Shown one piece after another: positions 3,508-23,799 of a stretch of 31,164 nt of DNA; positions within the stretch are counted from its first letter, which is position 1, and each line of letters starts with the position of its first letter. The position numbers were made by a program, and so were the translations under genes. The notes under the pieces are model-generated. The model made no database searches, was not told the origin of the DNA, and saw only the letters and a list, made by a program, of their open reading frames with translations. Source of the DNA: a virus (Duplodnaviria > Heunggongvirae > Uroviricota > Caudoviricetes); IMG/VR virus record IMGVR_UViG_2713896902_000001. One strand, 5' to 3'.

Positions 3508-4065
3508 ATGATTAACCAACTAACTTTTACAAAACACTATGACACGTTTGATAATGTATCAAAGATTTATTCTGATAAATTCCCTCAAGGAAAAGATTTA
3601 GATCTATTACATATTGTGCTTTATTTTCGATTCCTTAGTTATCAGGAAAACAACCTTAATTGTTATGAAAGTCACGAAACATTAGCTAAGATTTTTAAGT
3701 CTTCATCGTCAACAATTAAACGTAAGATAAACGATCTTAAAGAGATGGGATTATTAGAAACATCCCCACATCCTGATCCGTATATTTCATCTTTGATTTA
3801 CAATGCTCTCCCTCTCACAGATGCACATATTACTCCCCCAGGAGAATCATCACTCTCTGATCTTTCTGAGGCAGAAGAAGCACAGGAACAACCTAAAGGC
3901 CATAAACAGCCTTCTTTTGATGTTCTTGATGATTGGGATGCGCCTTTGCCGTGGGAGACGGAAGAAACACCTGTTTCATCAAGTGAAAAGGTAGCTAATG
4001 ATAATGAGGCATATTTTTCTAAGCATTACCCAAATGTGTATGATGACTTTGATATTCCATTTTAA
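3508..4065 (+). CDS. HTH-type DNA-binding protein with acidic C-terminal tail; possible replication-initiation or regulatory protein
   Basis: Track ORF 3484..4065 (GTG); preferred start is ATG 3508 with AAGGAG RBS; winged-helix-like segment (ETLAKIFKSSSSTIKRKINDLKEMGLLE) then acidic tail; sits downstream of the iteron-rich region. Confidence 0.6.
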   Translation: MINQLTFTKHYDTFDNVSKIYSDKFPQGKDLDLLHIVLYFRFLSYQENNLNCYESHETLAKIFKSSSSTIKRKINDLKEMGLLETSPHPDPYISSLIYNALPLTDAHITPPGESSLSDLSEAEEAQEQPKGHKQPSFDVLDDWDAPLPWETEETPVSSSEKVANDNEAYFSKHYPNVYDDFDIPF

Positions 4066-4076
4066 TAAGGAGGGTT

Positions 4077-4355
4077 ATGATTCAATATTTAGTAAAAAAT
4101 CAAGTAGACAGAATTCAGTGTAATGACACAGGAAAACGCATCTACGAAACACTTGCTTACCTCTATAAAGGAAAGCCAACACCGCTAAAATATAGCGATG
4201 TGTTACACCGAGCAGGGTGCTCTGAAGATGGTTTAAAATTCTGGCTGAAACAGCTATCAAATTTCGGTGTTATAGAGATTAAAGAATTATCTTTCTCTAC
4301 ATTCAATCTCAAAAGACTAAATAGAGAAATAGACTTCATCTATTCCACTCTCTAA
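4077..4355 (+). CDS. hypothetical small protein, possible HTH regulator (92 aa)
   Basis: Track ORF; TAAGGAGGG RBS directly upstream. Confidence 0.6.
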   Translation: MIQYLVKNQVDRIQCNDTGKRIYETLAYLYKGKPTPLKYSDVLHRAGCSEDGLKFWLKQLSNFGVIEIKELSFSTFNLKRLNREIDFIYSTL

Positions 4356-7486: not shown

Positions 7487-9331
7487 ATGTTAGAAATTAA
7501 CACTTCTAAAATTAAGAACACAGTTACATTTAGTGTAGATAAAGACAGCTTGAAAAAAGCGAAAGACTCTATTACAGGCTTAAAGGAATTCGCAGAGAAC
7601 ATCAAGCCAGCTAAATTAAGGTTTGATAATGTCACTAAAGGCTATAAGAAAGCACAAAACGAAGTAGACAAGATTGCTCAACAGAAAGCTAAAACAGAAA
7701 AGCAGAATCAAAGAGCACAAGCTGCCGCAGCAAGAGCACAGGCAAGGCAACAGGCACAAATAGCAGCACGTAAAGAGAAAGCAGAATTAAAACTTCTCGA
7801 TGTGTCAAGCTCTATCAGTGCAATGCACCGCCTCTCTGTAGCGGAACAATACAAAGCTATTGCACAGGCTAGAGAGATAGCAAAACAATATGAGCAAGGG
7901 GCTATCTCGCTTGCACGTATGAATAGCCAAATGAAACGCTTACAACAACAACAACGTAAGATTAATGGCAACAGAAAAGCTCAATTTGCCCCCGTTAAAG
8001 GAGGATCAGGGAATTCCGCCACTATGGGCGCTCTGTTATTTGGAGGCGCTACAGCGGCGGCTGGCGTGATGGCTGTAAGCAAAGCCTCTGATTTTGTTAC
8101 TAGCAGCTTCGCTAACGCAGAGACGCAAGGGGAGCTAATTCAACGGGCCAAGCTGGGCGGTGTAGACGTTAACCAGATGTATAATATTACAGAATGGGCG
8201 TATAGAAACGGCGTTGACTCTATGATGGGTGATCAAGGTGCTAGGAAATACCTGGATCAGATGAAAGATGTTAGGGAACGTGCCGCAAAATCCTATAGTG
8301 AAGCTGAATTAGTGAAAGATAAGAAAACCGGAAAATCAGGGAAATGGAAAGGCGGTGATAACGCTATTAATGAACTTCTAAACATCGGTGTTATTAACAA
8401 AAGCGACCTTAAAAAATTTGCTGATAATCCAGCCGGATTAATTTCTAAGGCTGTTAATGGAATGATGAAAAAAGGGTTTTCAGACTCCCAAATTGGACAA
8501 CGTTTAGAAGACCTGGGCGATGATTTGATGCTTACGTCAAAATATTGGCAACGTTCCGTTAAAGATGTACAAGAAAGTATTAATCAGCAAAAAGCCTCTG
8601 GAAAATGGCTAACAGAAACACAGCAAGAATCTATCGTTAAATTCAGAGAACTAAACAGACAGCTTTCACAGCTTTCTGATGCAAGGCAAGTAGCATTCGT
8701 AGACGGCTTTATGAAATCTCTCGATCCAAAAGTAACGGAAGAGTTTATGAAAAACCTTTCTAATCTCACTCCGTATTTTACGAAGCTGGGAGAAGCTGCA
8801 GGAAGTCTCTTTGAGGCCATTATGAAGATTGTAAACTGGTTTAATCGTAATGATGATAAGACAGATGCTATTCAGAAAAATTTAGGTGATGCACCGCCAT
8901 TAAGCAATGATGGAATGAAACAGCATCTTTCTAATCTCGTTCCTGATCAATATAAAGGCGCTGGCACTGCAACAACTACACCTGATAATAGTCATTCTCT
9001 CTTTAACACGATTAAGGGATTGCTTTTCGATGATAATGCTTCTTCTGTATCAGATGTAAAAATGTCAGTCAGCGAAGCACCGATAACCAATCTCAAACAG
9101 GGTGCTTTAAATAATCTTGCAATGACAACTCCGGCTTATAATTTATCTCCTGTGTTTAATCTGAATCCAACGTTTGAAGTGGTAACAGAGGTTCCTCTTA
9201 CTATTAATTCTGACACATCCAGATTAAGCGATTATGTGGATTTTACAGCGAGAGCAAGTCGGGATAGCTTCTTGAAATCATTAACATTAACCAGCTTATC
9301 AGGACAATCTAACGGCGGGGACCCGCCATAA
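7487..9331 (+). CDS. large coiled-coil protein with a Gly/Ala-rich hydrophobic segment (614 aa); virion-internal, tape-measure-like or ejection-like protein
   Basis: Track ORF; AAGGGGA RBS; N-terminal Ala/Gln/Lys-rich heptad-like region (QKAKTEKQNQRAQAAAARAQARQQAQIAARKEK), hydrophobic GGSGNSATMGALLFGGATAAAGVMAV; antisense Cys-rich ORF 7708..7971 is a mirror artefact of the Ala/Gln codons. Confidence 0.7.
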   Translation: MLEINTSKIKNTVTFSVDKDSLKKAKDSITGLKEFAENIKPAKLRFDNVTKGYKKAQNEVDKIAQQKAKTEKQNQRAQAAAARAQARQQAQIAARKEKAELKLLDVSSSISAMHRLSVAEQYKAIAQAREIAKQYEQGAISLARMNSQMKRLQQQQRKINGNRKAQFAPVKGGSGNSATMGALLFGGATAAAGVMAVSKASDFVTSSFANAETQGELIQRAKLGGVDVNQMYNITEWAYRNGVDSMMGDQGARKYLDQMKDVRERAAKSYSEAELVKDKKTGKSGKWKGGDNAINELLNIGVINKSDLKKFADNPAGLISKAVNGMMKKGFSDSQIGQRLEDLGDDLMLTSKYWQRSVKDVQESINQQKASGKWLTETQQESIVKFRELNRQLSQLSDARQVAFVDGFMKSLDPKVTEEFMKNLSNLTPYFTKLGEAAGSLFEAIMKIVNWFNRNDDKTDAIQKNLGDAPPLSNDGMKQHLSNLVPDQYKGAGTATTTPDNSHSLFNTIKGLLFDDNASSVSDVKMSVSEAPITNLKQGALNNLAMTTPAYNLSPVFNLNPTFEVVTEVPLTINSDTSRLSDYVDFTARASRDSFLKSLTLTSLSGQSNGGDPP

Positions 9332-9352
9332 CATTACAAGGAAATTATTATT

Positions 9353-10066
9353 ATGGCGACCGCCGGGATTTTAACCATACGTGCAGCAAATACTCCAGAA
9401 CAACACGTTCAGGCTGTTTACAAAGCAGAACAAGATATAAACTCTACAAAAAACGAAAATAGCAAAGCTAATAAAACAAAAGGAGAGAACGGATTTGCTA
9501 TTGTTACCAGTGGACTGGCATCTTCTGGTAATGATGTTTATGAAAATTATATGGCACTGGCCTTTGATAGTGTTGACGATGTGAACGTGAGACGTTCGGC
9601 AGATGTCACAAGCTACCCCGTAGAAAATGGTGCTACTGTGTCTGATCACGTTCAAATTAAAAACAATAAGTTCTCTCTTAAAGGGCGTATCTCTGAAACA
9701 CCGATTAAAAGCGATCCTGGCTTGTTAAAGAGTGCAGGGGTGAACGGGAACAGAAGATCATTGGCTATTGATTATCTGAATCAGATTATGGACAGTAGAC
9801 AGCCTTTTCTTCTTGTTACAGAAAATAAAACTTTTGAGAACGTTGTTTTAACAGGCATCGAATACACAGAAGAGGCAAGCGAATCCCTGGTATTTGATCT
9901 TAGCTTTGAGCAGATCAGGCTCGTTTCGTATGGCACTGTAAACACTGTAGCTATCAAAACACAGCCATCTAAGAACATCGGGGCTAATATGAAAAAACGT
10001 GTTAACACTGAAAAACCAAGTAGTGAAGGTGAAGACACTATTACTCCTGCCTTTAAACAGGAATAG
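9353..10066 (+). CDS. hypothetical protein (237 aa), possibly structural
   Basis: Track ORF; AAGGA RBS; last gene of the rightward operon. Confidence 0.65.
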   Translation: MATAGILTIRAANTPEQHVQAVYKAEQDINSTKNENSKANKTKGENGFAIVTSGLASSGNDVYENYMALAFDSVDDVNVRRSADVTSYPVENGATVSDHVQIKNNKFSLKGRISETPIKSDPGLLKSAGVNGNRRSLAIDYLNQIMDSRQPFLLVTENKTFENVVLTGIEYTEEASESLVFDLSFEQIRLVSYGTVNTVAIKTQPSKNIGANMKKRVNTEKPSSEGEDTITPAFKQE

Positions 10067-10104
10067 CCGTAAATGCCTCTAAAACGCTCTGTAACGATGT
10101 AATT

Positions 10105-10140
10105 ATAAAAGAGGCTACCAACTATGTTGAATCCTCTTTA
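10105..10140. terminator. hairpin between convergent genes (bidirectional terminator candidate)
   Basis: TAAAAGAGGctaccaactatgttgaatCCTCTTTA between the 9353..10066 gene and the minus-strand integrase. Confidence 0.4.
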
Positions 10141-10146
10141 TTGCGT

Positions 10147-11481
10147 CTATGACGTTGTTTTACGCCTTAAATTTGATTTTTTATTGATTGATAAGCCTTT
10201 CTCTATTTCAGGGTAGCGTAGAAGCTCAATATATTTTTTAAGCTCTACTGGAGAAGCTGCATTCTTGCTATATGTGCGGAATGTTTCTGTATTGCCGCGT
10301 GTATGGCCCAGGAGAAGGGCGATCCTGTCTTCTGGAATTTGATTTCGATCAAGAAGCTGTGCTACTCCGTGTCTCAGAGAATGAAACACTTTCCTTTCTG
10401 TTCCCTTTTCCCCTAAAGCCTTTCGTTTAGCTCTTGTAAATCTCTGCGTGTGCCACGTGGAACGTTTACCATCAGCACGCTCTGTAATGCTGGCGTGATA
10501 GAACAAAAAGCCATTATGAGGCTTTTCACGCAGCGACAACACCAACGGAGTGATAAGGCTATGCACAGGAACAAGACGTGCCGCAGCTTTCGTTTTTCCC
10601 TGTGTGATTTCAAAACACAGCACACCTTCGATCTCTTTCACATCGTCTATTGTGAGACTTGCTATCTCATTGATCCGCATACCTGTATAAGCACCGATAA
10701 GACACAAAGCCATCATTTCTTTGTTTTCTGCTGAATCACCGGAAAATACTTGCAACACCTGCAATAGCTCTTTGTTAGAAAATGCCTCATAGCTCTCTCT
10801 ACTTTGTGCCACATCAAGCCTATGCCCTCGCCAGGGGGAGAGCGCCCTTTCTGGCGCATCGTGGTAACGTGATGAAGCTAACTCCCATAGCTGGGCCATT
10901 GGGCTGATATAATTTGCAATTGATTGTTGTGAAAGGGTTTTTTGCATGTGTTCTATCCAGCCTGTAACAGTGGTGCGGCTTACATCTTGCAATGCAATAT
11001 CAGGCTTTTTACGGTAGGAGAGAAACATCTCTACCGCTTTTCTTGCCTTAGCTAAAGTGGCTGGCTTCTTCTTCGTGCTGTTAATTGTCAGGTAGATTTC
11101 AAGAATTTTAAGCAATGACGGACACGAAGACGCTGTATCTTGCATTCTGGTAGCTGTTTTGGCGTATTTAGCCTTACTGCGTAACAGTTCCAGCGTGTTC
11201 TCTATTGTGCTGTTTACAGGAGCGACACTCTCGCGTAAGCAATGGTATTCATCTGCAATCTGATCACGCTTTCTACGTGCAACACGAAGGTTACTTGTAT
11301 GCAGACTCCTGACAAACGTCCTTTTTCCTTCAAAAAAGGGCTGCATATACACAGGCAGCGTGATCCTTAAATAGTAGTTACCGTAAGAATCACAGATTAT
11401 GTATTGATTGGGCTTGTATCTCATAAACTCCCCGGCTAAAGTGTCGGAGCGTTTGTAATGTGAAAATTGATTGTAACGCAT
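10147..11481 (-). CDS. int: tyrosine recombinase / phage-type integrase (444 aa)
   Basis: C-terminal catalytic signature: R in GMRINEI, HSLRHG (H-x-x-R), LLGH, Y in TFRTYSK; N-terminal arm-binding-like region. Confidence 0.85.
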   Translation of the reverse strand: MRYNQFSHYKRSDTLAGEFMRYKPNQYIICDSYGNYYLRITLPVYMQPFFEGKRTFVRSLHTSNLRVARRKRDQIADEYHCLRESVAPVNSTIENTLELLRSKAKYAKTATRMQDTASSCPSLLKILEIYLTINSTKKKPATLAKARKAVEMFLSYRKKPDIALQDVSRTTVTGWIEHMQKTLSQQSIANYISPMAQLWELASSRYHDAPERALSPWRGHRLDVAQSRESYEAFSNKELLQVLQVFSGDSAENKEMMALCLIGAYTGMRINEIASLTIDDVKEIEGVLCFEITQGKTKAAARLVPVHSLITPLVLSLREKPHNGFLFYHASITERADGKRSTWHTQRFTRAKRKALGEKGTERKVFHSLRHGVAQLLDRNQIPEDRIALLLGHTRGNTETFRTYSKNAASPVELKKYIELLRYPEIEKGLSINKKSNLRRKTTS

Positions 11482-11751
11482 AGAAAATGATAATTTTTTC
11501 TATAAGATTCAATCAATTAGTAATGGTCGTAGGTGATGGCATTAACACGAGATTAATCGAGTGTTTTACTCCTATTATCGGCACCATTCAAACATCTCCC
11601 CAAGTCTACTAAAGTCTTTCAAAACCCCTTATAATCCACGTATTAAAGCCCCGTTCGTCTTTTGACGTCTACTAAAGTCCCTCAAAATCTACGGTCAGAT
11701 GGGGGTACTTATGGGGGTATTTGCTGTTCGGTTTAGTGGAGGTACCCCCAA
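11482..11751. promoter_or_regulatory. shared control region between divergent integrase genes with 20-bp direct repeats
   Basis: GTCTACTAAAGTC(T/C)(T/C)TCAAAA twice (about 11605 and 11660); GGGGGTACttatgggggtatttgctgttcggtttagtggagGTACCCCC inverted repeat just before the int start; partly duplicated near 30794-31035. Confidence 0.4.
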
Positions 11752-12966: not shown

Positions 12967-13100
12967 CTGTATGAATAGACAGTGTCAAGCAATGGTAGTA
13001 GACTTATGTAGACGAACAAAGAATAGGCTATGTCTAGGCTGATCCCCGAAAACCCGTACACCCCTACGGGCTGGCATAGCCGTCAGAATTAGGGGCGCGG
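12967..13100. other. nested hairpin structures downstream of int (terminator or structured RNA/att-like element)
   Basis: GCTTGACtgtatgaatagacagtGTCAAGC, then GGCTATG...CCCGTAcacccctACGGG...CATAGCC nested stems. Confidence 0.3.
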
Positions 13101-13108
13101 GGTGGCGT

Positions 13109-13990
13109 ATGGTGAGAGCCAAAAAACAAGATTTAGCATGGTTTGATATTAATAATTATGAATTTTTAAATGATTTAACCTTGCCGGACTTGATTCAAGA
13201 ATTAGAGTGGCGTGATTTTTTATTGCGTCATGCAAAAGATGACACTGCTATATTCAAAGAAGAGTACGATATAAAATATGAAAGAATTTTTTCGGGCGAT
13301 CCTAACCTAACCATTCTCAATGAAGAAGAGGAAGAGGTTGAAGAATTTATTCGCAAAGTAAATGATGAAGCCCCATCATTAAGAAATGAGTACGATGATC
13401 TTCCCTCATTATCTTCAGCTATGGGGGTTAGTCCAGTAACATTTTCAGAGCTGGCTATGTACTCTTTCTCATCGATAGATCAAGGCTTTTTTAAAAGAGA
13501 CGAAGAGGATTGCTACCTCAAGGCAAACGCTATGCTTGCGAGTGTTACTGGAAACCTAAGTAATTGTTCCCCTAACATCATACTCGTTTCTATAGATTTA
13601 GATGACGCCACTGATGACGAAATTATTACCAGCCTGACTCACCTTCTACCTCTATGGCGAAAAGAGTTAAAAGTACCAGAGAGAGAGCATGTCGCTCAGA
13701 AAAGGATTGGATTAAAGACCCTCCAGAAGTTGATATCTAATAGAGTGATACCTATTGTTGATCTGCTGATTTGGGGTGAGAAGTCAGGTAAGGAAGTGAG
13801 CAATCCGATGATTTCTGCCTTGGTTTTTAGTGATGATCCGAAAGATACGCAGGCTATTAAGGAATCAATAAAGCCTTTTGCACTTGAATCCATAAGCGAG
13901 AGATACACCCGCTTGCTTCAGCTTTATGTAAACAAAGACAGAGAAATGAGCTTGATAAAAATATCTGATTTAATGAGTAGAGATTTATAG
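13109..13990 (+). CDS. hypothetical protein (293 aa), AT-rich cargo gene between int and alpA
   Basis: Track ORF; visibly lower GC than flanking int and alpA; acidic runs (NEEEEEVEEF, DLDDATDDEI); no recognisable catalytic motif by eye. Confidence 0.7.
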   Translation: MVRAKKQDLAWFDINNYEFLNDLTLPDLIQELEWRDFLLRHAKDDTAIFKEEYDIKYERIFSGDPNLTILNEEEEEVEEFIRKVNDEAPSLRNEYDDLPSLSSAMGVSPVTFSELAMYSFSSIDQGFFKRDEEDCYLKANAMLASVTGNLSNCSPNIILVSIDLDDATDDEIITSLTHLLPLWRKELKVPEREHVAQKRIGLKTLQKLISNRVIPIVDLLIWGEKSGKEVSNPMISALVFSDDPKDTQAIKESIKPFALESISERYTRLLQLYVNKDREMSLIKISDLMSRDL

Positions 13991-14034
13991 CAAGCAAAAT
14001 CCTACGTAAACGTTTTAAGTAAATTTCGCGATTT

Positions 14035-14069
14035 CCGCTTTGAATACGCTACTGTGTATTTCAAAGCGG
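14035..14069. promoter_or_regulatory. perfect 10-bp inverted repeat CCGCTTTGAA / TTCAAAGCGG (operator or terminator) between the cargo gene and alpA
   Basis: Read directly; not followed by a clear T-run, so operator favoured over terminator. Confidence 0.3.
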
Positions 14070-14187
14070 ATAATCTTCTCAAAAAAATATTTTATTTTTA
14101 TCCGCTATCACCCACTCACCTGTTTGTTTAATCTCCTTTCTGTCTACTGATGTCCATTAAAGAAGATGACAGAATATAGGAGTAAAC

Positions 14188-14385
14188 ATGTCTCAATCAT
14201 TTATTCGTCTTTCTGAGGTTCAACGCCGTACTGGTTACAGCAAAGCGTGGATTTATCGGCTCATCAAAGAACAGCGATTCCCTCAATCTGTAAAGATTGG
14301 AAGCCGATCAATTGCGTTTATTGAAAGTGAAATTGAAGAATGGATTAATCAGCGCATCGCTGAGTCGCGTGGCGAGGTAGCGTAA
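14188..14385 (+). CDS. alpA: AlpA/Vis-family phage transcriptional regulator (65 aa)
   Basis: HTH pattern LSEVQRRTGYSKAWIYRLIKEQRFP...IESEIEEWINQR typical of AlpA-family proteins; position after int as in P4-like and PICI-like islands. Confidence 0.85.
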   Translation: MSQSFIRLSEVQRRTGYSKAWIYRLIKEQRFPQSVKIGSRSIAFIESEIEEWINQRIAESRGEVA

Positions 14386-14816
14386 TGAATAAGAAAAACC
14401 GCCCATTACAGGCGGCTAATTCAGATATTCGCGTATCTGATGTTACGCCCCTTACAAAATCCCTTCAAGCACCAAAGCGCACACCGAAAAAGCATCGTGC
14501 CAGAGTCTATATGCTGCGTACTGGTATAGAGGGATGGACAGAAAATGACATTCTTCGCTACTGCCGTCTGTCTTCTGGTCGTAACTATGCAACAGAGTTA
14601 GAACGCCAGCTTGGAATCACTCTGGAGCGTATCGACGAAAAGAATCCTGATGGTATCGGAACACACCTTCGCTACCGTTTCTCCTGCCGTGGTGATGTTC
14701 TGAAAGTGATCACTCATGTTAACCATCTTGCGAACATAAATGATCACAACGGACTTTCTCAGCAGGAAATTGCCGACATTCTGAAACTCTACCCGGACGC
14801 GTTTAACGCCGCCTAA
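14385..14816 (+). CDS. hypothetical protein (143 aa)
   Basis: Track ORF; ATG overlaps the alpA stop (translational coupling). Confidence 0.6.
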   Translation: MNKKNRPLQAANSDIRVSDVTPLTKSLQAPKRTPKKHRARVYMLRTGIEGWTENDILRYCRLSSGRNYATELERQLGITLERIDEKNPDGIGTHLRYRFSCRGDVLKVITHVNHLANINDHNGLSQQEIADILKLYPDAFNAA

Positions 14817-14828
14817 CGGAGACTGAAA

Positions 14829-15662
14829 ATGAACATCGAAAAAAGCAGATTAATTTCTGAGGCCGCCCCTCATCTGAACGCCTCTCTGGGCACAATTAAC
14901 GGTAATGAATTTGCCGCAATTGTCCCGGTTATTCCTGGTCATATCGGTGGGCGTGAAACCAATATTGTTAGCGCAAAAGCGTTACACAAAGCGTTGGGCG
15001 TGGGAAAAGACTTCTCTACATGGATCACTGATCGCATCTCTGAATATGACTTCACCATTGGGCACGATTACTCAGTCCATAAAACAATTTCCCCAAATTT
15101 GGGGAAAAGCCCGAATGGCGCGGCTTACAGCAAGATTAAGCAGTCTGGCAGACCCGGCAAAGACTATCTGTTAAGTGTCGGAATGGCGAAAGAACTGGCA
15201 ATGATCGAACGCAATGATCAGGGTCGCGCTATCCGTCGTTATTTCATCCAGTGCGAGGAAGAATTACAGCGTAGCGTGCCTGAAATCGCCGCCCGCTATC
15301 GTCGCCAGCTAAAAGCCCGTATCAGTGCCGCAAACAACTTTAAGCCAATGTGCGATGCGCTGAATATGGCCCGTGCCGAGCAGGGGAAAACGACGCAGCA
15401 ACACCACTACACAAACGAGAGCAATATGATTTCTCGTATCGTTCTTGGAGGGCTAACTGCTAAGCAGTGGGCGCGGATAAATGGCTATTCTGGCGAACCT
15501 CGCGACCATATGAACGCAGAACAGCTTGAGCACCTCTCATATCTCGAAAGCACCAATATCACGTTAATTGATATGGGCATGGAATATGAGCAACGTAAAG
15601 GAGAACTCACCCGCCTGTCGCAACGCTGGCTCGCCAAGCGTCTGGAGGCGGTCCATGTTTAA
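14829..15662 (+). CDS. hypothetical protein (277 aa), possibly phage regulatory/antirepressor-like; family not assigned
   Basis: Track ORF; GGAG RBS; placed in the regulatory block between alpA and the primase. Confidence 0.65.
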   Translation: MNIEKSRLISEAAPHLNASLGTINGNEFAAIVPVIPGHIGGRETNIVSAKALHKALGVGKDFSTWITDRISEYDFTIGHDYSVHKTISPNLGKSPNGAAYSKIKQSGRPGKDYLLSVGMAKELAMIERNDQGRAIRRYFIQCEEELQRSVPEIAARYRRQLKARISAANNFKPMCDALNMARAEQGKTTQQHHYTNESNMISRIVLGGLTAKQWARINGYSGEPRDHMNAEQLEHLSYLESTNITLIDMGMEYEQRKGELTRLSQRWLAKRLEAVHV

Positions 15663-15837
15663 GCCGACAGGAACACCACAACCTCAAAAACGCTACAAAG
15701 ATGCCCACGGAGCACTCGTTACTGTCGAAAGCGTGTCTCACAACCGAGTGACGTTTTATCGCGACGGGTATCAATCGCCATGCGTACAACCGCTGGCGCG
15801 CTTCATGAAGGAGTTCGCGGAGGTTAACAAATGCTAA
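15655..15837 (+). CDS. hypothetical small protein (60 aa)
   Basis: ATG 15655 with GGAGG RBS overlapping the upstream stop; internal start of track ORF 15568..15837. Confidence 0.4.
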   Translation: MFKPTGTPQPQKRYKDAHGALVTVESVSHNRVTFYRDGYQSPCVQPLARFMKEFAEVNKC

Positions 15838-16898
15838 CCGTCCAGAAGAAGATATTTTCACTGGCTGGTATGTCACCAAAATCCAGCAATATGACAGCAA
15901 AGTCTGGCATTAATACAGCAGATACAAGCAAAGTTTATCATTTTCTGGTGGTAGGAGCGGATGCCTTAACTATGTCAGAAATTACGGTCGATGGTGTTAG
16001 CGTTGAGAAGGTCAGCGGCTGCGCCAGAGAATTTCTGGTCGTAGATGGCTTTCTCTGCTCGCGTAGTGACTCCACAAAAACCTTCGTCCATACGCGCGAC
16101 GTTAACGAAATGAGCGCGATGTATTGTGCATCTGGTGCTTCCAATAGTGAGTTTTCGGAGTCCATAAAAAAGAGCTTGCCGTTATGCGGCAACACGGTTT
16201 ATGGTTATAAGGCACCTCATAAAACGGGTGCCGGGATTGGCGTCCTGAAAATTCTGAAGGCGACATATGACGCGCCGAGCGTCTTTTTTTATGTCGTAGG
16301 TCTGACTCACCCATTTTTTGGGCGTTGGTGTATAATCCAGCGCCTTTGTCAATCAATGGTGGCTCAGGCGGGGGCTTCTTCGGAAGCGCCGGTATCCTTC
16401 AGAGCCGGTTACGCCAACCCTGTCTGGGCTACCACCAGCGAAATTGGCGTTTCCGGTGGTAGCGTAACCTGCTATCTGAAGGAGGCTGCCACATGCTGGC
16501 TACTACCCCTACCCAAAAACCGCAATTTATCTGGATTATCGCCGCAGTTCGCCGCGATTGCCCGACAATTACCGCCAAAATTCATCATATTGCTGCCGAG
16601 TCTGAACGCGATGCTCGCCGTTCTCTGGTGCGCGATCACGTCTGCTTTTTTGCTGGTCGTATCCGCATGGAGGTGGCACATGATTAAAACCTACGATGTG
16701 CATATGGATCCCCTCGAACGCACAAGCCAGATCATCACACTGACAGAAGTGATTAATGACATTCTGGTGAGCAACTCTCCCTCACGAGACGAAAAACTGA
16801 AGGCGTTACTCGCGATATTGGATCTCGCCGTTCGTGACGTTCATTTCCTGCTGGAAGGTGGCGAAATGCCAGGAAAAACGGGGGCAACCAATGAATAA
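15831..16898 (+). CDS. long ORF of uncertain authenticity (355 aa); the 3' part probably corresponds to separate small genes
   Basis: No stop in this frame, but a well-supported 64-aa gene (16493..16687) is embedded in another frame and a strong internal RBS/ATG sits at 16680; composition looks atypical (Cys/Trp-rich). Confidence 0.3.
16493..16687 (+). CDS. hypothetical small protein (64 aa)
   Basis: Track ORF; AAGGAGG RBS 8 nt upstream of ATG. Confidence 0.4.
   Translation: MLATTPTQKPQFIWIIAAVRRDCPTITAKIHHIAAESERDARRSLVRDHVCFFAGRIRMEVAHD
16680..16898 (+). CDS. hypothetical small protein (72 aa)
   Basis: GGAGG RBS then ATG 16680 overlapping the stop of 16493..16687; same frame as the long ORF. 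Confidence 0.4.
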   Translation: MIKTYDVHMDPLERTSQIITLTEVINDILVSNSPSRDEKLKALLAILDLAVRDVHFLLEGGEMPGKTGATNE

Positions 16899-17085
16899 CT
16901 CAATTAATGCCCCTCGACTTACGTCCGCACTTCAATTAATCGAGCAAGCAGCGGCTGTCCTGGTTGCTGTCAGTCTTTCGGCTGAAGAAATGGACGCTGC
17001 TGATGTCGTGGATGCGATTAAAGCGTGCTCATCTTTGGTTAACGATGCTCGTGCAGAGCTGGTAATTCTTGGGGGTGAAAAATGA
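16891..17085 (+). CDS. hypothetical small protein (64 aa)
   Basis: Internal ATG of track ORF 16834..17085; ATGAATAA overlap with the upstream stop. Confidence 0.5.
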   Translation: MNNSINAPRLTSALQLIEQAAAVLVAVSLSAEEMDAADVVDAIKACSSLVNDARAELVILGGEK

Positions 17086-17345
17086 ATATCAACTTAATTT
17101 ATCGTCATCCGTGTGAGCTGGAAATTGAATCATTGCTGAGCCGTGAAGAGCCATATCCAGACACATTCACTCTTGCAGATCGCACGACTGAACGGCTTAC
17201 CAGAGCGCGCACAGGTCTGGTTCATGTGATGAATGAGATTCTTCCATCGGTGGGAGGGGAACAGGCGACAGTAATCACTAGCTGGCTACAAAAAGTTACC
17301 TCTCTGATAGATATCAGTTTAATCGATGCGGAGAGTGCGAAATGA
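17082..17345 (+). CDS. hypothetical small protein (87 aa)
   Basis: Track ORF; ATGA start/stop overlap. Confidence 0.55.
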   Translation: MNINLIYRHPCELEIESLLSREEPYPDTFTLADRTTERLTRARTGLVHVMNEILPSVGGEQATVITSWLQKVTSLIDISLIDAESAK

Positions 17346-17563
17346 CCAACATCCAGCTCATTGAAGCACAATGTCGCATCGAACAGGTTCAGACTGTTTT
17401 AGGGTTCTGGCTTGAAGGGGCCAGCCCCAGCAACAGAGACAAGTTAATGATTGGCGCGGTTATGTCACTGCTCAATGGCGTACCAGAAGCTATTCAGGAA
17501 GCAGACGAATTGTTGGGCAAATATGAGTTACAGAATCATTCAGGCGAGGCGAAACATGAATAA
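17342..17563 (+). CDS. hypothetical small protein (73 aa)
   Basis: Track ORF; ATGA overlap. Confidence 0.55.
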   Translation: MTNIQLIEAQCRIEQVQTVLGFWLEGASPSNRDKLMIGAVMSLLNGVPEAIQEADELLGKYELQNHSGEAKHE

Positions 17564-17780
17564 TTTCTTAACTTTCCATGCAGAAGCAACGCCTGACGGC
17601 GTAAACATCATGTATCGCAGCAACGATGGCATGACAGAACGCGTTGAGGCCGTCTCATATATTGATGCCGTAAATCGTCTGGATGCCGGGGATTATGACG
17701 ATAAACCAGATGAAGGTATGTCAATACATCTCGCTATTGCCGATGGCGGCAACCAGGGATATTTCGATTACACATCATAG
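17556..17780 (+). CDS. hypothetical small protein (74 aa)
   Basis: Internal ATG of track ORF 17451..17780; ATGAATAA overlap with upstream stop. Confidence 0.5.
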   Translation: MNNFLTFHAEATPDGVNIMYRSNDGMTERVEAVSYIDAVNRLDAGDYDDKPDEGMSIHLAIADGGNQGYFDYTS

Positions 17781-17792
17781 CATAACGTCATT

Positions 17793-18158
17793 ATGTGGAG
17801 ATGGCTGATCGCAACAGTATTCATGCTGGAAATGAGAGAGGAAAACGGCACTGTCAGTATCATTGATGATACTGGCAATCCTTCCGAAGTGGCTGTTTAT
17901 TCCAACGGCATCGTCGCCATACCGCTGTATCCAGTAGCAGAGCGCCTCGCTATGGCAAACAACATTGAGGGCGCGATGATAGAACGTTTTGGCATCGAGT
18001 CTGGCACAGAACGCGCCATCATTTTCTACAGAGCCATGATGGATGTGGAACAAGGAGCACTGACTCCATTTGGTCGTGAAACGCTTGCTGAACTTCACAA
18101 CAGCTTTATAGCTGAACTGAATGAAAACGGCATGCCAGCGGAACCAGTGACGCACTGA
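17793..18158 (+). CDS. hypothetical protein (121 aa)
   Basis: Track ORF; start uncertain (alternative ATG about 17826). Confidence 0.5.
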   Translation: MWRWLIATVFMLEMREENGTVSIIDDTGNPSEVAVYSNGIVAIPLYPVAERLAMANNIEGAMIERFGIESGTERAIIFYRAMMDVEQGALTPFGRETLAELHNSFIAELNENGMPAEPVTH

Positions 18159-18168
18159 GGATGGAACC

Positions 18169-18510
18169 ATGATTACTAAAAATTTCCGACTGAATGCGCT
18201 GGCAAATAAGTATGCGTCGGCACTGTATAACCACATTACCTCCACCAGCGGCGGGGACTATTTCATGGTTGATGCGGACGGCGAGGCCGTACGTGTGGAA
18301 ATCGTCAATGGAGTAAAAGGCGTTCGCAGCCTGATCGATAGCTACACACTGGCAGCCATGAAAGTGTTCTACCCGCAGTGGGAAACCGTGGGGATCGAGC
18401 TTCTTGAGCGTTGCGTCACTAAGGACGGATTGACTGACGTCGGGCGTGAGATATGGCAAAGCATGGTTAATGACATGGGCGCAACTGTAGCGGGAGGTTC
18501 TCATGCGTGA
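18169..18510 (+). CDS. hypothetical protein (113 aa)
   Basis: Track ORF; GAGGATGG RBS. Confidence 0.6.
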   Translation: MITKNFRLNALANKYASALYNHITSTSGGDYFMVDADGEAVRVEIVNGVKGVRSLIDSYTLAAMKVFYPQWETVGIELLERCVTKDGLTDVGREIWQSMVNDMGATVAGGSHA

Positions 18511-18874
18511 AAATGCAGAAATGGCGCTTAGCTCCGCAATCGGAGAGCTGGTGGCAAAGATTGCTGGTGCTGTGTGGATTCATAACCTTCATTCTACTGG
18601 TGAAGAGAAAATGGCAATTCAGACGCCAGAGGGACGCACCATTACTACATCTCTGAAGCCGTCAGATGTTTGTGATCTGATTTGCGCATTCATGTACCCA
18701 GCAATGAGGACTGTCCACGGCGATAAGTGGAAACTTGCGACAACCGCTGAATTTGATATGTGGCTAAACAATGATGGCATGCTGACTGATTACGGAATAA
18801 CCAAGTGGCAGATGCTGGTTAGCCATATCGCAAACGCTATAGACCACGTGGGGTACGGTGATGCGAAACATTGA
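18503..18874 (+). CDS. hypothetical protein (123 aa)
   Basis: Track ORF; overlaps neighbours at both ends. Confidence 0.6.
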   Translation: MRENAEMALSSAIGELVAKIAGAVWIHNLHSTGEEKMAIQTPEGRTITTSLKPSDVCDLICAFMYPAMRTVHGDKWKLATTAEFDMWLNNDGMLTDYGITKWQMLVSHIANAIDHVGYGDAKH

Positions 18875-21617
18875 TCTTATCCGTCAGGTTATCAGTGCGT
18901 CTGAAAACAACTGGCCTCATGTGCTGGGCTGCCTGAACATAAATGTCCCTGACTCTCCGCGCCGTCATGCTCCCTGCCCTGCATGTGGGGGCAAAGATCG
19001 ATTCCGGTTCGATGACAACGGGCGCGGTAGCTTCATCTGTAATCAGTGCGGCGCTGGTGATGGGCTGGATTTAATTAAACGCGTAAATAACTGCGACACA
19101 ACAGAGGCGGCGCTTCTTGCCGCTGATGTTCTGGGTATTGATTACCGGACAACGGAAACACCAGAAGCCACCAGCCAGAAACGGGAACAACTGGAAACCG
19201 AGCGCCAGCGACGCGAACAGGAGCGCCTGAAAAGGGCAGAGAAGGACGAACAACAAAGACGGGATACGTTTTCCCGTCAGTTTGATGACATGCGCAGAAA
19301 GGCTGTAAACGGCAAATCTGATTATCTGGTTGCGAAAGGGGTAGGTGATTTTACATTCCCCGTGTTGCCTGATGGATCTCTGTTGCTGGCGCTGGTGGAT
19401 AAATCCGGCGCAGTCACAGCAGCACAGACTATTACCTCACATGGTGAAAAAAGACTCCTGACAGGTTCAGCAAAGCGGGGGGCATATCACGCCATAAACG
19501 CACCAGAAACAACACAGAGCATCTTAATCGCAGAAGGGCTGGCAACGGCATTATCTGCCCATTTAATTCGTCCAGAGGCGCTGACAGTGGCGGCGATTGA
19601 TGCCGGGAACCTGTTATATGTCGCCCAGGTACTGCGGGATAAATTTCCTTCAGCACAAATCATCATTGCTGCGGATAACGACCACAGCGAAGGAAGACAA
19701 AACACGGGGAGAATAGCAGCAGAAAAAGCAGCTTTATCTGTTTCTGGATGGGTGGCATTACCCCCGACAGGTCACAAAGCAGACTGGAATGATTACCACC
19801 AAAAACACGGCATTAAATGCGCCACAGAAGCGTTCAATAAGTCAATGTACCAACCACAGGGTAATGGCGTGAAACAGGAGCCACAGACCATTGAGGGAAG
19901 CGATTTTAAGGTTATGGATACCGACCCACTGAAACCAAGAATAGAAAGCCGCGAGGATGGTATTTATTGGGTATCTCCGAGAGCTGACAGCCAGAGTGGA
20001 GAAATCATCAATAACGAAAGCTGGTTATGTTCTCCGTTAAGCGTTATCGGTACTGGCAGAGACGATAAAGACCAGTATCTCATTCTTCGCTGGCTGTCGT
20101 TTGGTTCTGAAACGCCGACAACCGCTGCCATTCCACTGGCTGATATTGGTGAACGTGAAGGATGGCGCACACTTAAAGCTGGTGGGGTAAATGTCACGAC
20201 CAAAAGCAGCCTCAGAGCAATACTGGCAGACTGGCTACAACGCAGTGGCTCTCGTGAATTGTGGCGTGTTGCTCATGCCACTGGCTGGCAATGCGGAGCG
20301 TACATCATGCCTGATGGGGAAATCATCGGAACACCTGAAAATCCTGTGCTGTTCAGCGGGAGAAGCTCAGCCGCAGCCGGATATACCGTCTCAGGGAGCG
20401 CGAAAAGCTGGCGTGATAACGTGGCGCGTCTGGCCTTTGGTAACTATTCAATGATGACCGGGATCGGCGCAGCACTGGCAGCGCCATTGATTGGGCTGGT
20501 GGGCGCTGACGGGTTCGGCATTCATTTCTATGAGCAGTCGAGCGCAGGTAAGACCACCACGGCAAACGTGGCGAGCAGCTTATACGGCAACCCTGATTTA
20601 CTGCGGCTGACGTGGTATGGAACCGCGCTGGGGCTGGCAAATGAGGCCGCCGCCCACAATGACGGACTAATGCCGCTTGATGAAGTTGGTCAGGGCGCTG
20701 ATCCTGTCAGCGTTTCACAGTCTGCCTATGCGTTATTTAACGGTGTAGGGAAACTGCAAGGCGCTAAAGATGGTGGAAACCGGGATCTAAAACGCTGGCG
20801 TACAGTGGCAATCAGCACCGGAGAAATGGATTTAGAAACATTTATCGCTACTTCCGGGCGAAAAACCAAAGCCGGGCAACTGGTGCGACTGCTGAATATT
20901 CCGTTGAGTAAAGCAGTACGCTTTCACGATTACCAGAACGGAAAACAGCACGCAGACGCACTGAAAGACGCTTACCAGCATCACCACGGCGCAGCCGGGC
21001 GTGAGTGGATTAAATGGCTGGCAGACCACCAGCAACAGGCAATTAAAACTGTTCGTGACTGCGAAAGCAGATGGAGAAGTCTGATCCCATCCGATTATGG
21101 TGAGCAGGTTCACCGTGTAGCCGCGCGATTTGCCATTCTGGAGGCCGCATTGCTGTTAGGCGAGGTTGTAACAGGCTGGGATGCTCAGACATGCCGTGAT
21201 GCGATACAGCACAGCTATAACGCATGGTTGCGCGAGTTCGGCACAGGTAACAAAGAACATCAGCAGATTATTGAACAAACGGAGGCATTTCTTAATGCCT
21301 ATGGGCTTAGCCGTTTTGCACCATTTCCATACAGCCCGGCAGATTTGCCCATCAAAGATTTAGCCGGATACCGTCAGCGTGGAGAACATGACGAAAGCCC
21401 AATGATTTTCTACACATTCCCGGCCACATTTGAAAAGGAGATCGCATGTGGTTTCAACGCAAAACAGTTTGCTGAAGTGTTGAAAAAAGCCGGGATGCTA
21501 ACCCCACCAAACAGTGGTCGTGGATACCAAAGAAAATCACCACGTATTCAGGGACGACAAATAAACGTTTATGTACTCAATTACCAGCCAGGAGATTACA
21601 ACTCATCTGAAGAATGA
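18861..21617 (+). CDS. primase-helicase, P4 alpha-like (zinc-ribbon + TOPRIM primase, C-terminal NTPase)
   Basis: Zinc ribbon CPACGGKDRFRFDD...CNQCG; TOPRIM acidic motif IIAADNDHSEGRQ; Walker A-like SSAGKTT and Walker B-like LMPLDEVG; followed directly by the iteron cluster. Confidence 0.9.
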   Translation: MRNIDLIRQVISASENNWPHVLGCLNINVPDSPRRHAPCPACGGKDRFRFDDNGRGSFICNQCGAGDGLDLIKRVNNCDTTEAALLAADVLGIDYRTTETPEATSQKREQLETERQRREQERLKRAEKDEQQRRDTFSRQFDDMRRKAVNGKSDYLVAKGVGDFTFPVLPDGSLLLALVDKSGAVTAAQTITSHGEKRLLTGSAKRGAYHAINAPETTQSILIAEGLATALSAHLIRPEALTVAAIDAGNLLYVAQVLRDKFPSAQIIIAADNDHSEGRQNTGRIAAEKAALSVSGWVALPPTGHKADWNDYHQKHGIKCATEAFNKSMYQPQGNGVKQEPQTIEGSDFKVMDTDPLKPRIESREDGIYWVSPRADSQSGEIINNESWLCSPLSVIGTGRDDKDQYLILRWLSFGSETPTTAAIPLADIGEREGWRTLKAGGVNVTTKSSLRAILADWLQRSGSRELWRVAHATGWQCGAYIMPDGEIIGTPENPVLFSGRSSAAAGYTVSGSAKSWRDNVARLAFGNYSMMTGIGAALAAPLIGLVGADGFGIHFYEQSSAGKTTTANVASSLYGNPDLLRLTWYGTALGLANEAAAHNDGLMPLDEVGQGADPVSVSQSAYALFNGVGKLQGAKDGGNRDLKRWRTVAISTGEMDLETFIATSGRKTKAGQLVRLLNIPLSKAVRFHDYQNGKQHADALKDAYQHHHGAAGREWIKWLADHQQQAIKTVRDCESRWRSLIPSDYGEQVHRVAARFAILEAALLLGEVVTGWDAQTCRDAIQHSYNAWLREFGTGNKEHQQIIEQTEAFLNAYGLSRFAPFPYSPADLPIKDLAGYRQRGEHDESPMIFYTFPATFEKEIACGFNAKQFAEVLKKAGMLTPPNSGRGYQRKSPRIQGRQINVYVLNYQPGDYNSSEE

Positions 21618-22666: not shown

Positions 22667-23128
22667 ATGGAACTAAAATTTATTGATAACCCGGTGCGAT
22701 TACAGGCCTTTCTTAACGAGCCTGCCAATACCGAAAATATTGTTGAGCCGGGGCACACGTACTACATCAAGCCTGATGCGGTATATCTCGGCATCTACGA
22801 AGGATTGGTGCTGGCTGGCGTTCATGAAGTGCGTAACTTCTGGCATAGCATTGTTGAATGTCATGCGGTGTACGACCCCGGATTCCGTGGTGAATATGCA
22901 CTGCAAGGGCATCGATTATTCTGCAAATGGCTTCTCGAAAACTCACCATTCCTTAACAGCATCACTATGGTTCCTGACACCACGAAATACGGACGGTCAA
23001 TTATCCGTTTGCTTGGCGCTACCCGTGTTGGTCACCTGGCCGATGCATATATCAGATGTGGTAAACCCGTCGGCGTAACGCTTTATCAGTTAACTCGGCA
23101 ACAATATAAGGAACTCAGCGAATGTTAA
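22667..23128 (+). CDS. hypothetical protein (153 aa)
   Basis: Track ORF; stop overlaps the next gene start. Confidence 0.6.
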   Translation: MELKFIDNPVRLQAFLNEPANTENIVEPGHTYYIKPDAVYLGIYEGLVLAGVHEVRNFWHSIVECHAVYDPGFRGEYALQGHRLFCKWLLENSPFLNSITMVPDTTKYGRSIIRLLGATRVGHLADAYIRCGKPVGVTLYQLTRQQYKELSEC

Positions 23129-23799
23129 TTACCCATATAGCTCATAAACATCTCAATCGTGCCGTATACGAAAAAGGCGGTGATGGTGGTGCCTCTAAAG
23201 CTCAGGCGAAGGCCCAGCAGCAGGCAATTGATTTGCAGCGCGAGCAGTGGAATACGGTGATGAATAATCTCAAGCCGTATGCAGAAGTCGGATTGCCTGC
23301 TTTACAACAACTACAAGGGCTGATGACTCTGGAAGGGCAGAATAAAGCCGCGAATGATTTCTTTGGTTCTGGTTTATATAAAACACAGGCAGATCAGGCC
23401 CGTTATCAGAACCTTGTCTCAGCAGAAGCTACCGGGGGGCTTGGCTCAACAGCTACCAGTAACCAGTTATCTTCCATTGCGCCCATGCTTTATAACAATT
23501 GGCTTAGTGGGCAAATGCAAAATTATGGAAACCTGCTAAATGTCGGGATGAATGCGGCATCAGGGCAGGCAACGGCTGGGCAAAACTACGCCAATAATAC
23601 CGGACAACTCTTGCAGGGGCTTGGCGCTATTCGTGCAGGTCAGGCGCAGCAGCCATCCAGTCTTGCGCGTGGTATTGGTGGGGCAGCATCAGGCGCTTTA
23701 GCGGGTGCGCAACTTGGTTCCGTTGTTCCTGGAATAGGTACTGCGGCCGGCGCTATTGGTGGTGGGATTATTGGTCTTGTTGGGGGGCTTGGATTCTAA
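23122..23799 (+). CDS. Gly/Ala/Gln-rich protein with C-terminal glycine-zipper hydrophobic tail (225 aa); ejection/internal-virion-protein-like
   Basis: C-terminus GIGGAASGALAGAQLGSVVPGIGTAAGAIGGGIIGLVGGLGF; first of three translationally coupled genes. Confidence 0.6.
   Translation: MLITHIAHKHLNRAVYEKGGDGGASKAQAKAQQQAIDLQREQWNTVMNNLKPYAEVGLPALQQLQGLMTLEGQNKAANDFFGSGLYKTQADQARYQNLVSAEATGGLGSTATSNQLSSIAPMLYNNWLSGQMQNYGNLLNVGMNAASGQATAGQNYANNTGQLLQGLGAIRAGQAQQPSSLARGIGGAASGALAGAQLGSVVPGIGTAAGAIGGGIIGLVGGLGF

Follow-up and report, generated by a model that had tools for sequence, protein, structure and literature searches.

The subject of this study is a single gene of a phage satellite in a 31,164-nucleotide (nt) stretch of viral DNA (Caudoviricetes; IMG/VR record IMGVR_UViG_2713896902_000001), which is called the window throughout. 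The gene lies between the integrase gene int and the regulator gene alpA and encodes a 293-residue protein of the family DUF6387. This protein very probably belongs to a large set of mutually unrelated proteins, each of which can fill, as a single gene, the same fixed slot immediately upstream of alpA. By analogy with the IOLG protein of the Vibrio PICMIs (phage-inducible chromosomal minimalist islands), we propose that DUF6387 would be a factor of the AlpA switch of its island rather than a free-standing defence enzyme, and the probability of this reading is put at roughly 0.45. The slot holds one gene, its occupants show no likeness to known defence systems, DUF6387 is met in the context of alpA only, and the result with the iolg gene of PICMI115 is at hand. 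It is this combination that favours a role in the AlpA switch.

The slot gene and its family

The gene is a standalone open reading frame (ORF) with an ATG start on the plus strand (13109-13990). The stop of int (12966) is 142 nt upstream, and the alpA ATG (14188) is 197 nt downstream of the end of the ORF. The preliminary description had presented it as an AT-rich standalone ORF of 293 residues between a P4-type integrase and alpA, and the base composition agrees with this. The G+C content is 37.6% in the ORF and 34.0% in the spacer between the ORF and alpA, against 47.5% in int, 43.4% in alpA and 51.2% in the primase gene. The acidic runs mentioned there were also found, at residues 72-81 (NEEEEEVEEF) and 163-172 (DLDDATDDEI). 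However, the statement that the protein has no recognisable motif does not hold. The protein belongs to Pfam DUF6387 as a full-length member, with a score of 132.8 bits over a cut-off of 28.9, and its residues 5-269 align with model positions 6-256 of 258. Its length is also that of the family, whose members are single-domain proteobacterial proteins of about 250-330 residues. The gene is in fact already known as an annotated DUF6387 allele in 87 complete Escherichia coli genomes; the entries annotated as 'DUF6387 family protein' are 99% identical to the window protein.

Close relatives with 43-99% identity form 47 homologous clusters, nearly all of 292-297 residues, and come from Escherichia, Yersinia, Pantoea, Pectobacterium, Salmonella, Klebsiella, Providencia, Morganella, and Xenorhabdus. 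An exhaustive profile search among 1.84 billion representatives gave 501 DUF6387 clusters (E<=1e-3), mostly of 250-330 residues. Ten of the longer members were checked, and none of them had a second domain or a domain fusion. In an alignment of 18 relatives, 71 columns are invariant. The comparison of the window gene with the DUF6387 genes of three other loci (L002, L003, and L010; loci compared with the window are numbered with an L) gave nonsynonymous rates (dN) of 0.22-0.29 with saturated synonymous sites. Therefore, the gene is under purifying selection. It could still be asked whether the ORF is a chance frame or a decaying remnant in an AT-rich spacer, since AT-rich sequence favours long ORFs, if only weakly. 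This has next to no probability and is already refuted by the conservation data, namely the full-length Pfam match, the uniform length of the 47 clusters, the 501 clusters of the family, the invariant columns and the substitution pattern. The confident structure model and a Shine-Dalgarno sequence at -10 also speak against it.

Among 132 diverse members, the near-invariant residues are W11, F12, Y17, R35, L180, R184, D218, L219, and W222, and no catalytic signature was recognised among them. No enzymatic or membrane motif was found in the slot protein. The NCBIfam search with the protein gave no match, and its PHROGs match is phrog_23422 only, a family of unknown function. The AlphaFold2 model obtained from the alignment of 132 sequences is mostly helical, with a predicted local distance difference test (pLDDT) value of 92.9 and a predicted TM-score (pTM) of 0.87. 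An earlier model from 18 close homologues had a pLDDT of 60.6 and was not used in the fold search. The check by remote homology and structure that had been recommended brought no assignment: Foldseek of the model against PDB and BFVD gave nothing below E=1, and a profile search of PDB sequences with DUF6387 gave chance-level matches only (E>=0.26). The echoes of winged-helix or helix-turn-helix (HTH) folds are weak and below threshold. In the literature searched, DUF6387 appears only within gene tables, those of ICEKp258.2 and of a Serratia island. YfjH, a protein of about 300 residues between intA and alpA of CP4-57 in E. coli K-12, was considered as a relative and rejected; it is encoded on the opposite strand, has no Pfam match and reached an hhalign probability of 0.4%.

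Exchange of the slot gene

E. coli sister islands that match the window at 96-98% DNA identity in int and alpA lack the slot gene. The homology with them breaks off at the stop codon of int (12966) and is restored at codon 4 of alpA (14197), and a 442-bp unrelated spacer stands between. NZ_LR882973.1 is an example with an empty slot. A count over 5,426 complete E. coli genomes gave the empty-slot spacer in 281, window-type DUF6387 in 87 (85 at >=99% identity), and the RNA leader described below in 114. Ten islands with integrase-region DNA 75-89% identical to the window were also compared. The left homology ends at 13081-13114 in nine of them, and in the tenth (L010), which carries DUF6387 itself, it continues to 13947. 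The right homology block restarts at 14178-14203 in all compared islands reaching alpA. As delimited by these alignments, the exchangeable cassette begins with the slot ATG and extends up to the ribosome-binding site of alpA, and therefore it carries the hairpin after the gene as well as the alpA leader. At least seven unrelated slot proteins accompany integrases that are at least 88% identical in amino acid sequence. Thus, the description of the locus as a variable single-gene position in a satellite resembling phage-inducible chromosomal islands (PICIs) was borne out: the same integrase lineage is found with at least seven unrelated proteins, sister islands are empty, and the occupancy across islands shows a position that is not conserved in all related ones. 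The reading as a conserved core gene, not cargo, to which the constant adjacency of DUF6387 and alpA had first pointed, was dropped, because the sister islands and the motif-anchored survey show a hypervariable slot.

The survey was carried out with a 16-base pattern from the RNA motif, which fetched at least 120 viral and at least 120 metagenomic loci. When 200 of the 240 loci were checked with our own covariance model (E<0.01), the motif was confirmed in 99 of the first hundred and in 92 of the second. With the earlier ones added, there were 250 motif loci, and 209 of them have a same-strand ORF of at least 80 residues just past the motif. BLAST groups these ORFs into 112 clusters. The counts of this survey, here and below, are among the matches listed. 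The dimensions of the slot were taken from the pattern-fetched loci with alpA within 400 nt past the ORF. The median distance from the motif to the ORF start is 15 nt, the median ORF length is 290 residues (range 148-434), and the median gap from the ORF to alpA is 150 nt. Loci with alpA have exactly one gene per slot within a narrow size range. In 47 of 48 loci, the slot gene has a lower G+C content than int, the median difference being 9.8 points.

The 109 loci with the order leader, ORF, and alpA reduce to 39 ORF clusters. Pfam recognised DUF6387 in three of these clusters and a weak MutL_C in one, and nothing else. None of the 39 was matched by the PADLOC profiles. In profile-profile comparison, the slot families are unrelated to DUF6387 except for cluster 6, in which the C-terminal part of DUF6387 (residues 142-259) stands behind another N-terminus. 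Modules are also common to clusters 0, 2, and 5, to clusters 3 and 10, and to clusters 4 and 5, which shows that slot families shuffle their N- and C-terminal parts. By the detection used, an integrase is the left neighbour of the motif in about a third of the loci. Since the left gene is often not int, the conserved unit is the leader, one ORF, and then alpA. The commonest occupant, cluster 0, is an unannotated family of about 320 residues with 37 loci (L022, L026, L030, L038, L086, and 32 others). It has no Pfam or PADLOC match, and it is its C-terminal module that is common with clusters 2 and 5. In these loci, small ORFs rather than int border the gene on the left, and HK97-gp10-like and terminase genes are located upstream at a distance of up to about 0.5 kb. 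Nuclease, transposase, and PADLOC matches among the first 100 ORF clusters were rejected as occupants, because all of them vanish when alpA is required downstream. Lower-scoring int-alpA RNAs were seen after tail genes or a DNA polymerase gene on phage-like contigs, mostly without alpA (L028, L074, L106, and L050), and the rejected matches probably derive from loci of this kind.

Linkage of DUF6387 to alpA

The DUF6387-alpA pair is present in the window and in six further loci (L001-L003, L005, L008, and L010). The order int, DUF6387, and alpA is kept in five species-representative genomes with Int identities from 42 to 99%. Ten distant members were examined, and eight of them, with about 20-32% identity, are on contigs long enough to judge. 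All of these eight have a co-directional Phage_AlpA gene directly downstream. Their surroundings are diverse and include primase-bearing satellites, a type I restriction-modification island, and mobilisable islands of the EARL type, which bear TraD and pilin genes; in one of these, an IS605-type element is inserted between DUF6387 and alpA. The pair was also found in two published elements. In ICEKp258.2 the left neighbour is not an integrase, and in the Serratia island a recombinase gene is downstream of alpA. The position against int varies in three distant members, with an overlap of 4 nt in L021, an overlap of 1 nt in L262, and a 10-nt gap in L016. No DUF6387 gene away from alpA was seen in any informative context examined. 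The search of phage records gave no match in a true phage, and among 72,556 plasmid records there were five matches, several being islands or chromosomes.

One of these loci deserves a comment. L021 is pKp_Goe_795-4 of Klebsiella pneumoniae (CP018459.1), a circular molecule of 16,971 bp with int, DUF6387, and alpA. It was deposited as a plasmid and bears genes for a capsid protein, a head-tail adaptor, a terminase, and an integrase; it looks like an excised capsid-forming satellite. Another locus, the yicC island of E. coli AHM8C212RI (L009), shares the backbone from alpA to the primase gene with the window and has a different integrase. At its positions 3672-4322, it encodes a 216-residue protein without a Pfam match, whose gene has a 4-nt overlap with the int stop, as is the case for iolg, and there is no RNA leader.

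The RNA leader and the hairpins of the slot

The nested stems seen upstream of the gene in the preliminary description are the Rfam int-alpA RNA (RF02996) and not a chance structure, as the score is above the gathering score (Table 1). The RNA ends 14 nt before the slot ATG. Our own covariance model R1 gave 88.8 bits on the window leader, and the plain minimum free energy (MFE) fold of the whole 144-nt spacer between int and the slot gene is unremarkable (z=-0.6). In 95 leaders, 98.2% of cells are paired, and 346 two-sided changes were counted, as compared with 88.5 in shuffles. Two-sided changes occur in 11 of the 15 pairs, and slid controls reach 25-51% pairing. Although the alignment had been fitted to the model, the margin is large.

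The loop of the inner hairpin P3 is complementary to two boxes in the 3' tail, and box 2 is the Shine-Dalgarno sequence of the slot gene. The exact complement of the P3 loop 5-mer occurs in the 3' tail of 49 of 57 distinct leaders (permuted mean 5.5, maximum 14), and a 4-mer complement occurs twice in 47 of the 57 (permutation mean 7.8, maximum 17). Of the two copies, the second is usually located 10-12 nt before the start codon, which is the Shine-Dalgarno position. Loop and box change together, as in the matched variants CCTCT/AGAGG, CCTTC/GAAGG, CCGCAA/TTGCGG, CCCGTA/TACGGG, and CCTGA/TCAGG. This covariation between the P3 loop and the 3' tail goes beyond the published Rfam model. RF02996 reportedly goes back to Weinberg et al. 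2017, though int-alpA is not named in the text of that paper, and is typed in Rfam as gene/sRNA (small RNA). The window element lies between int and alpA, in agreement with its name, but its behaviour is that of a 5' leader for the slot ORF, and this is so across unrelated gene families. To judge from its sequence, the int-alpA RNA looks like a cis-acting translational leader of the slot gene. With the loop on box 1, the ribosome site of the slot gene would be free, and with the loop on box 2, it would be closed. The pattern of complementarity suggests that translation of the slot gene may depend on the choice between the two pairings.

The leader is present in the window and in L001-L004, L008, L010, L015, L018/19, and L263. 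It is absent from about half of the DUF6387 loci (L005, L011, L012, L013, L016, L021, and L262) and from three islands without DUF6387 (L006, L007, and L009). The 60-nt stretch from int to the motif is conserved among enteric islands whichever slot gene follows, and the three TAGAC repeats in front of the leader are kept in 7-8 of 8 enteric islands regardless of the slot gene. The repeats overlap a weak sigma-70-like site, TAGACA-17-TAGACT; in the promoter scan, such sites are not enriched over shuffles. The repeat region is a candidate promoter or operator of the leader and the slot gene.

The 3' side of the slot gene also carries structure. A perfect 10-bp inverted repeat had been described downstream of the gene. 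The perfect repeat exists, and its arms are 11 nt long instead of 10; they are 100% complementary and 15 nt apart. The extended palindrome fold has a z-score of -5.8, and none of 200 shuffles was equally stable. It was not called by the terminator scan because no T-run follows directly. A third half-site, TTATCCGCT, is located at 14098-14106. The palindrome falls inside the variable cassette and is a candidate terminator-like insulator or operator. Further downstream, the alpA leader hairpin pairs an anti-Shine-Dalgarno sequence with the Shine-Dalgarno sequence of alpA, and a GTCTACT repeat at 14142 is contained in it. A like design of the alpA leader is visible in L002, L003, L011, L013, and L016. 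Over 84 distinct alpA leaders, pairing involves 6.4 of 10 positions of the Shine-Dalgarno window, compared with 4.5 in shuffles; the median MFE z-score is -2.0.

A possible role in the AlpA switch

In the mechanism that we propose, DUF6387 would be the counterpart of IOLG/ICG of the Vibrio PICMIs, that is, a non-enzymatic and mostly helical protein taking part in the island's AlpA switch. The quiescent island would produce it along with int, and AlpA-dependent activation and excision would require it or be tuned by it. It may also give each island its own helper-phage specificity. The hyperdiversity and the domain shuffling of the slot families would then reflect differing helper-phage inputs rather than differing defence mechanisms.

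The closest known arrangement is that of the PICMIs. In 35 PICMI subfamilies, 13 unrelated gene families of unknown function are found between int and alpA, and some islands lack a gene there altogether (PMC10803314). The islands studied here are alike in both respects, with a single co-directional gene between int and alpA and many unrelated families at a position that is sometimes empty. Some DUF6387 genes overlap int by 1-4 nt, as PICMI iolg does. In contrast, the gene of the window is separated from int by the spacer that contains the int-alpA RNA. The deletion of iolg from PICMI115 abolished the helper-induced excision, and this is the sole experiment on a gene in such a position (PMC10803314). 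The excision requirement was thus established for iolg of PICMI115 only, not for DUF6387.

A second comparison can be made with the staphylococcal pathogenicity islands (SaPIs). Their Stl protein is the master repressor of the island; its transcription is divergent, and its N-terminus holds a clear HTH. Like the slot proteins, Stl is encoded next to the integrase gene, has about 250-300 residues, is extremely divergent between islands and is built from modular domains. Stl sets which helper phage induces the island, and DUF6387 might be comparable in this respect. On the other hand, DUF6387 is co-directional with alpA, and its HTH-like echoes stay below threshold. Moreover, the loss of iolg in the PICMI blocks excision instead of derepressing the island (PMC10803314).

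Several points weigh against a role of DUF6387 in the AlpA switch. The extreme diversity of the slot genes and their G+C content about 10 points below that of int (47 of 48 loci) resemble those of horizontally traded accessory genes. The iolg deletion was complemented only with int and iolg jointly, and a polar effect is possible (PMC10803314). DUF6387 is set beside iolg/icg by position and arrangement, not by sequence comparison. Near-identical islands without the leader and the gene are commoner than those with them (281 against 87), and therefore the gene is not generally essential. Finally, the identities of DUF6387, Int, and AlpA to the window are 68, 42, and 91% in L002 and 66, 67, and 64% in L003. 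The identity of DUF6387 does not track that of Int or AlpA, which argues against a tight physical partnership.

A wider version of the proposal treats the int-alpA RNA, the variable ORF, and alpA as one control module. In this module, the slot protein would couple a cue of the helper phage to AlpA-driven excision, and the anti-Shine-Dalgarno-like loop would gate its synthesis. We consider this version unlikely as a whole. If it were true, however, it would provide a function for an orphan Rfam motif and for dozens of dark-matter protein families, and it would address how helper phages turn on alpA. How the helper phage is sensed and alpA switched on is a question posed by the authors of the PICMI study (PMC10803314).

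The step from a variable slot to anti-phage defence, which was made in the preliminary description, is no longer the best-supported reading. It would make the slot protein an effector or sensor and a single-protein cargo for anti-phage defence, superinfection exclusion, or counter-defence, expressed from the quiescent island in a one-gene hotspot under a tight translational leader, and such a leader would suit a toxic effector. This is a serious alternative, although we hold it to be less probable than the AlpA-switch role. The hypervariable slot, its clean cassette borders, the low G+C content, and the presence or absence of the gene in otherwise 96-98% identical sister islands are all what would be expected of such a cargo. 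Co-expression with int in the quiescent island is plausible from the position as well. Satellites are known to carry defence hotspots, according to the PICMI paper, which cites Rousset 2022 and Fillol-Salom 2022 (PMC10803314). In addition, EcCIMP1, an E. coli island of the same type, confers superinfection immunity through an unidentified gene (PMC11773190). Nevertheless, no PADLOC family matched the slot protein at E<=0.01 and none matched the 39 slot clusters, in PADLOC-DB 2.0, which dates from 2023 and which newer defence systems would escape. The absence of an enzymatic or membrane motif in DUF6387 and the restriction of the slot to exactly one gene of similar size also tell against defence cargo. 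The distribution points in the same direction, since defence genes move between many contexts, whereas DUF6387 is found only upstream of alpA, does not occur in true phages and hardly occurs on plasmids.

The defence hotspots of P4-like satellites and PICIs have in common with the slot a variable locus beside the integrase gene and a rapid turnover of cassettes on near-identical backbones. The P4 hotspot is reportedly located between psu and int (Rousset 2022) and is said to hold one to many genes, often recognisable systems. The slot differs from it in having exactly one gene and in the lack of PADLOC matches for any of the 39 occupant clusters.

It is quite improbable that the gene is another kind of accessory cargo without a role in the island cycle or in phage conflict, such as a host-directed regulator or an addiction module. 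The weak winged-helix-like echoes would fit a regulator, and H-NS genes are carried by EARL islands and were seen in ICEKp258.2 and L013. PerC of EcCIMP1 is likewise a host-directed regulator in this island class (PMC11773190). However, such a role leaves unexplained the strict linkage to alpA and the leader that is conserved across unrelated occupants, and no antitoxin-sized partner gene is present in the slot.

The gene beside alpA is hardly discussed in the literature consulted. The int-alpA RNA is merely listed there, and no description of the design with loop, decoy box, and Shine-Dalgarno sequence was found. Three aspects of the present results appear to be new, namely the generality of the slot across island types, the assignment of the orphan int-alpA RNA with its decoy-box/Shine-Dalgarno design as the leader of the slot gene, and DUF6387 as an obligate occupant of the slot upstream of alpA. 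DUF6387 is one of the commoner occupants, and the RNA motif is a sequence handle to gather hundreds of uncharacterised families of the same functional class.

The island at thrW

The island is of the Gram-negative PICI type and is located at thrW (Table 1). Homology to thrW islands begins at the 19-nt att core (11568-11586), and proA and tRNA-Thr precede the same island in E. coli records. The window contains neither a complete tRNA nor a second copy of the att core. Gram-negative PICIs consist of an integration zone, a Bro zone with immunity RNAs, a replication zone, and captured late genes (PMC10111431). The island follows this plan, with unidirectional int, alpA, and primase genes, a zone with Bro and immunity RNAs, and a late zone with captured helper genes.

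Table 1. Position of the features of the island and of the slot within the window.
Feature	Position	Strand	Basis or remark
Att core, 19-nt copy of the tRNA-Thr (thrW) 3' end, left attachment site	11568-11586	+	Exact match to the tRNA-Thr of L007
Direct repeats GTCTACTAAAGTC, two copies	11604-11616, 11667-11679	+	Between att core and int; candidate arm-type or AlpA sites
P4-type tyrosine integrase (int), 404 residues	11752-12966	+	Pfam Arm-DNA-bind_3, Phage_int_M, Phage_integrase; annotated integrase in E. coli
TAGAC repeats, three copies	12976-12980, 12999-13003, 13009-13013	+	Overlap the sigma-70-like site
int-alpA RNA	13027-13094	+	Rfam RF02996; 46.7 bits, gathering score 35.8, E=8e-8
Outer stem P1	13027-13034 / 13073-13080
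Inner hairpin P3	13053-13057 / 13066-13070		Loop ACACCCCT at 13058-13065
Box 1, AGGGG	13091-13095	+	Complements the P3 loop
Box 2, GGGGTG	13099-13104	+	Complements the P3 loop; Shine-Dalgarno, 10 nt before ATG
DUF6387 family protein, 293 residues	13109-13990	+	Pfam PF19924, E=2e-38
Stable hairpin/palindrome after the slot gene	14031-14073	+	Arms 14034-14044 / 14060-14070
alpA leader hairpin	14125-14188	+	MFE fold; anti-Shine-Dalgarno CTCCT (14133-14137) pairs alpA Shine-Dalgarno AGGAG (14178-14182)
alpA, excisionase/activator-type regulator, 65 residues	14188-14385	+	Pfam Phage_AlpA, E=9e-20; constant right neighbour of the slot
Remaining island backbone	14385-21617	+	Pfam, Rfam, and comparison of related records
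PM1773-family protein, 143 residues	14385-14816
AntA (AntA/Bro protein)	14829-15662
isrK RNA	16212-16289
C4 RNA	16352-16439
Small ORFs	up to 18874
Toprim-DUF927 primase	18858-21617
DUF2824 (phrog_651) and P22-like ejection/DNA-transfer protein genes	22667-27835

The hexamer GTCTAC/GTAGAC recurs around the integrase gene and the slot. It occurs twice in the GTCTACTAAAGTC repeats, three times inverted just past int, and once 46 nt before alpA (14142). In L003, L010, and L015, a copy is likewise located upstream of alpA. The integrase arm domain or AlpA probably binds to this hexamer. The genes of isrK and of a C4-type antisense RNA (P1/P7/P4-style immunity RNAs) lie inside an ORF annotated as a 355-residue 'ash family protein', and this call (15831-16898) is probably too long.

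The genes for DUF2824 and the ejection proteins come after the primase gene also in E. coli KOr019 (NZ_CP091665.1), which like an O111:H8 strain carries this thrW island, and in EcCIMP1. Therefore, they are probably the captured late zone of the satellite rather than a separate prophage remnant. EcCIMP1 is an E. coli PICI that shares with the window the plan of int, alpA, primase, DUF2824, and DNA-transfer-like genes, the last two being common to EcCIMP1 and its helper, and it is mobilised by the P22-like phage Kapi1 (PMC11773190). From this precedent and from the DUF2824 and ejection-protein genes, the helper of the present island may be P22-like as well. EcCIMP1_002 would stand in the int-alpA slot to judge by its gene number alone; it is a small protein mis-annotated as UvrB, which is not DUF6387 (PMC11773190).

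To the left of the island, the region 7487-11481 is the end of a siphovirus-type prophage with a tape measure gene, a Dit-like gene, and a DUF6538-type integrase gene on the minus strand. The prophage end and the island are separated only by the 19-nt tRNA-Thr 3' end, and the same is seen in E. coli E66 (L006). The abutting elements suggest a tandem occupation of thrW.

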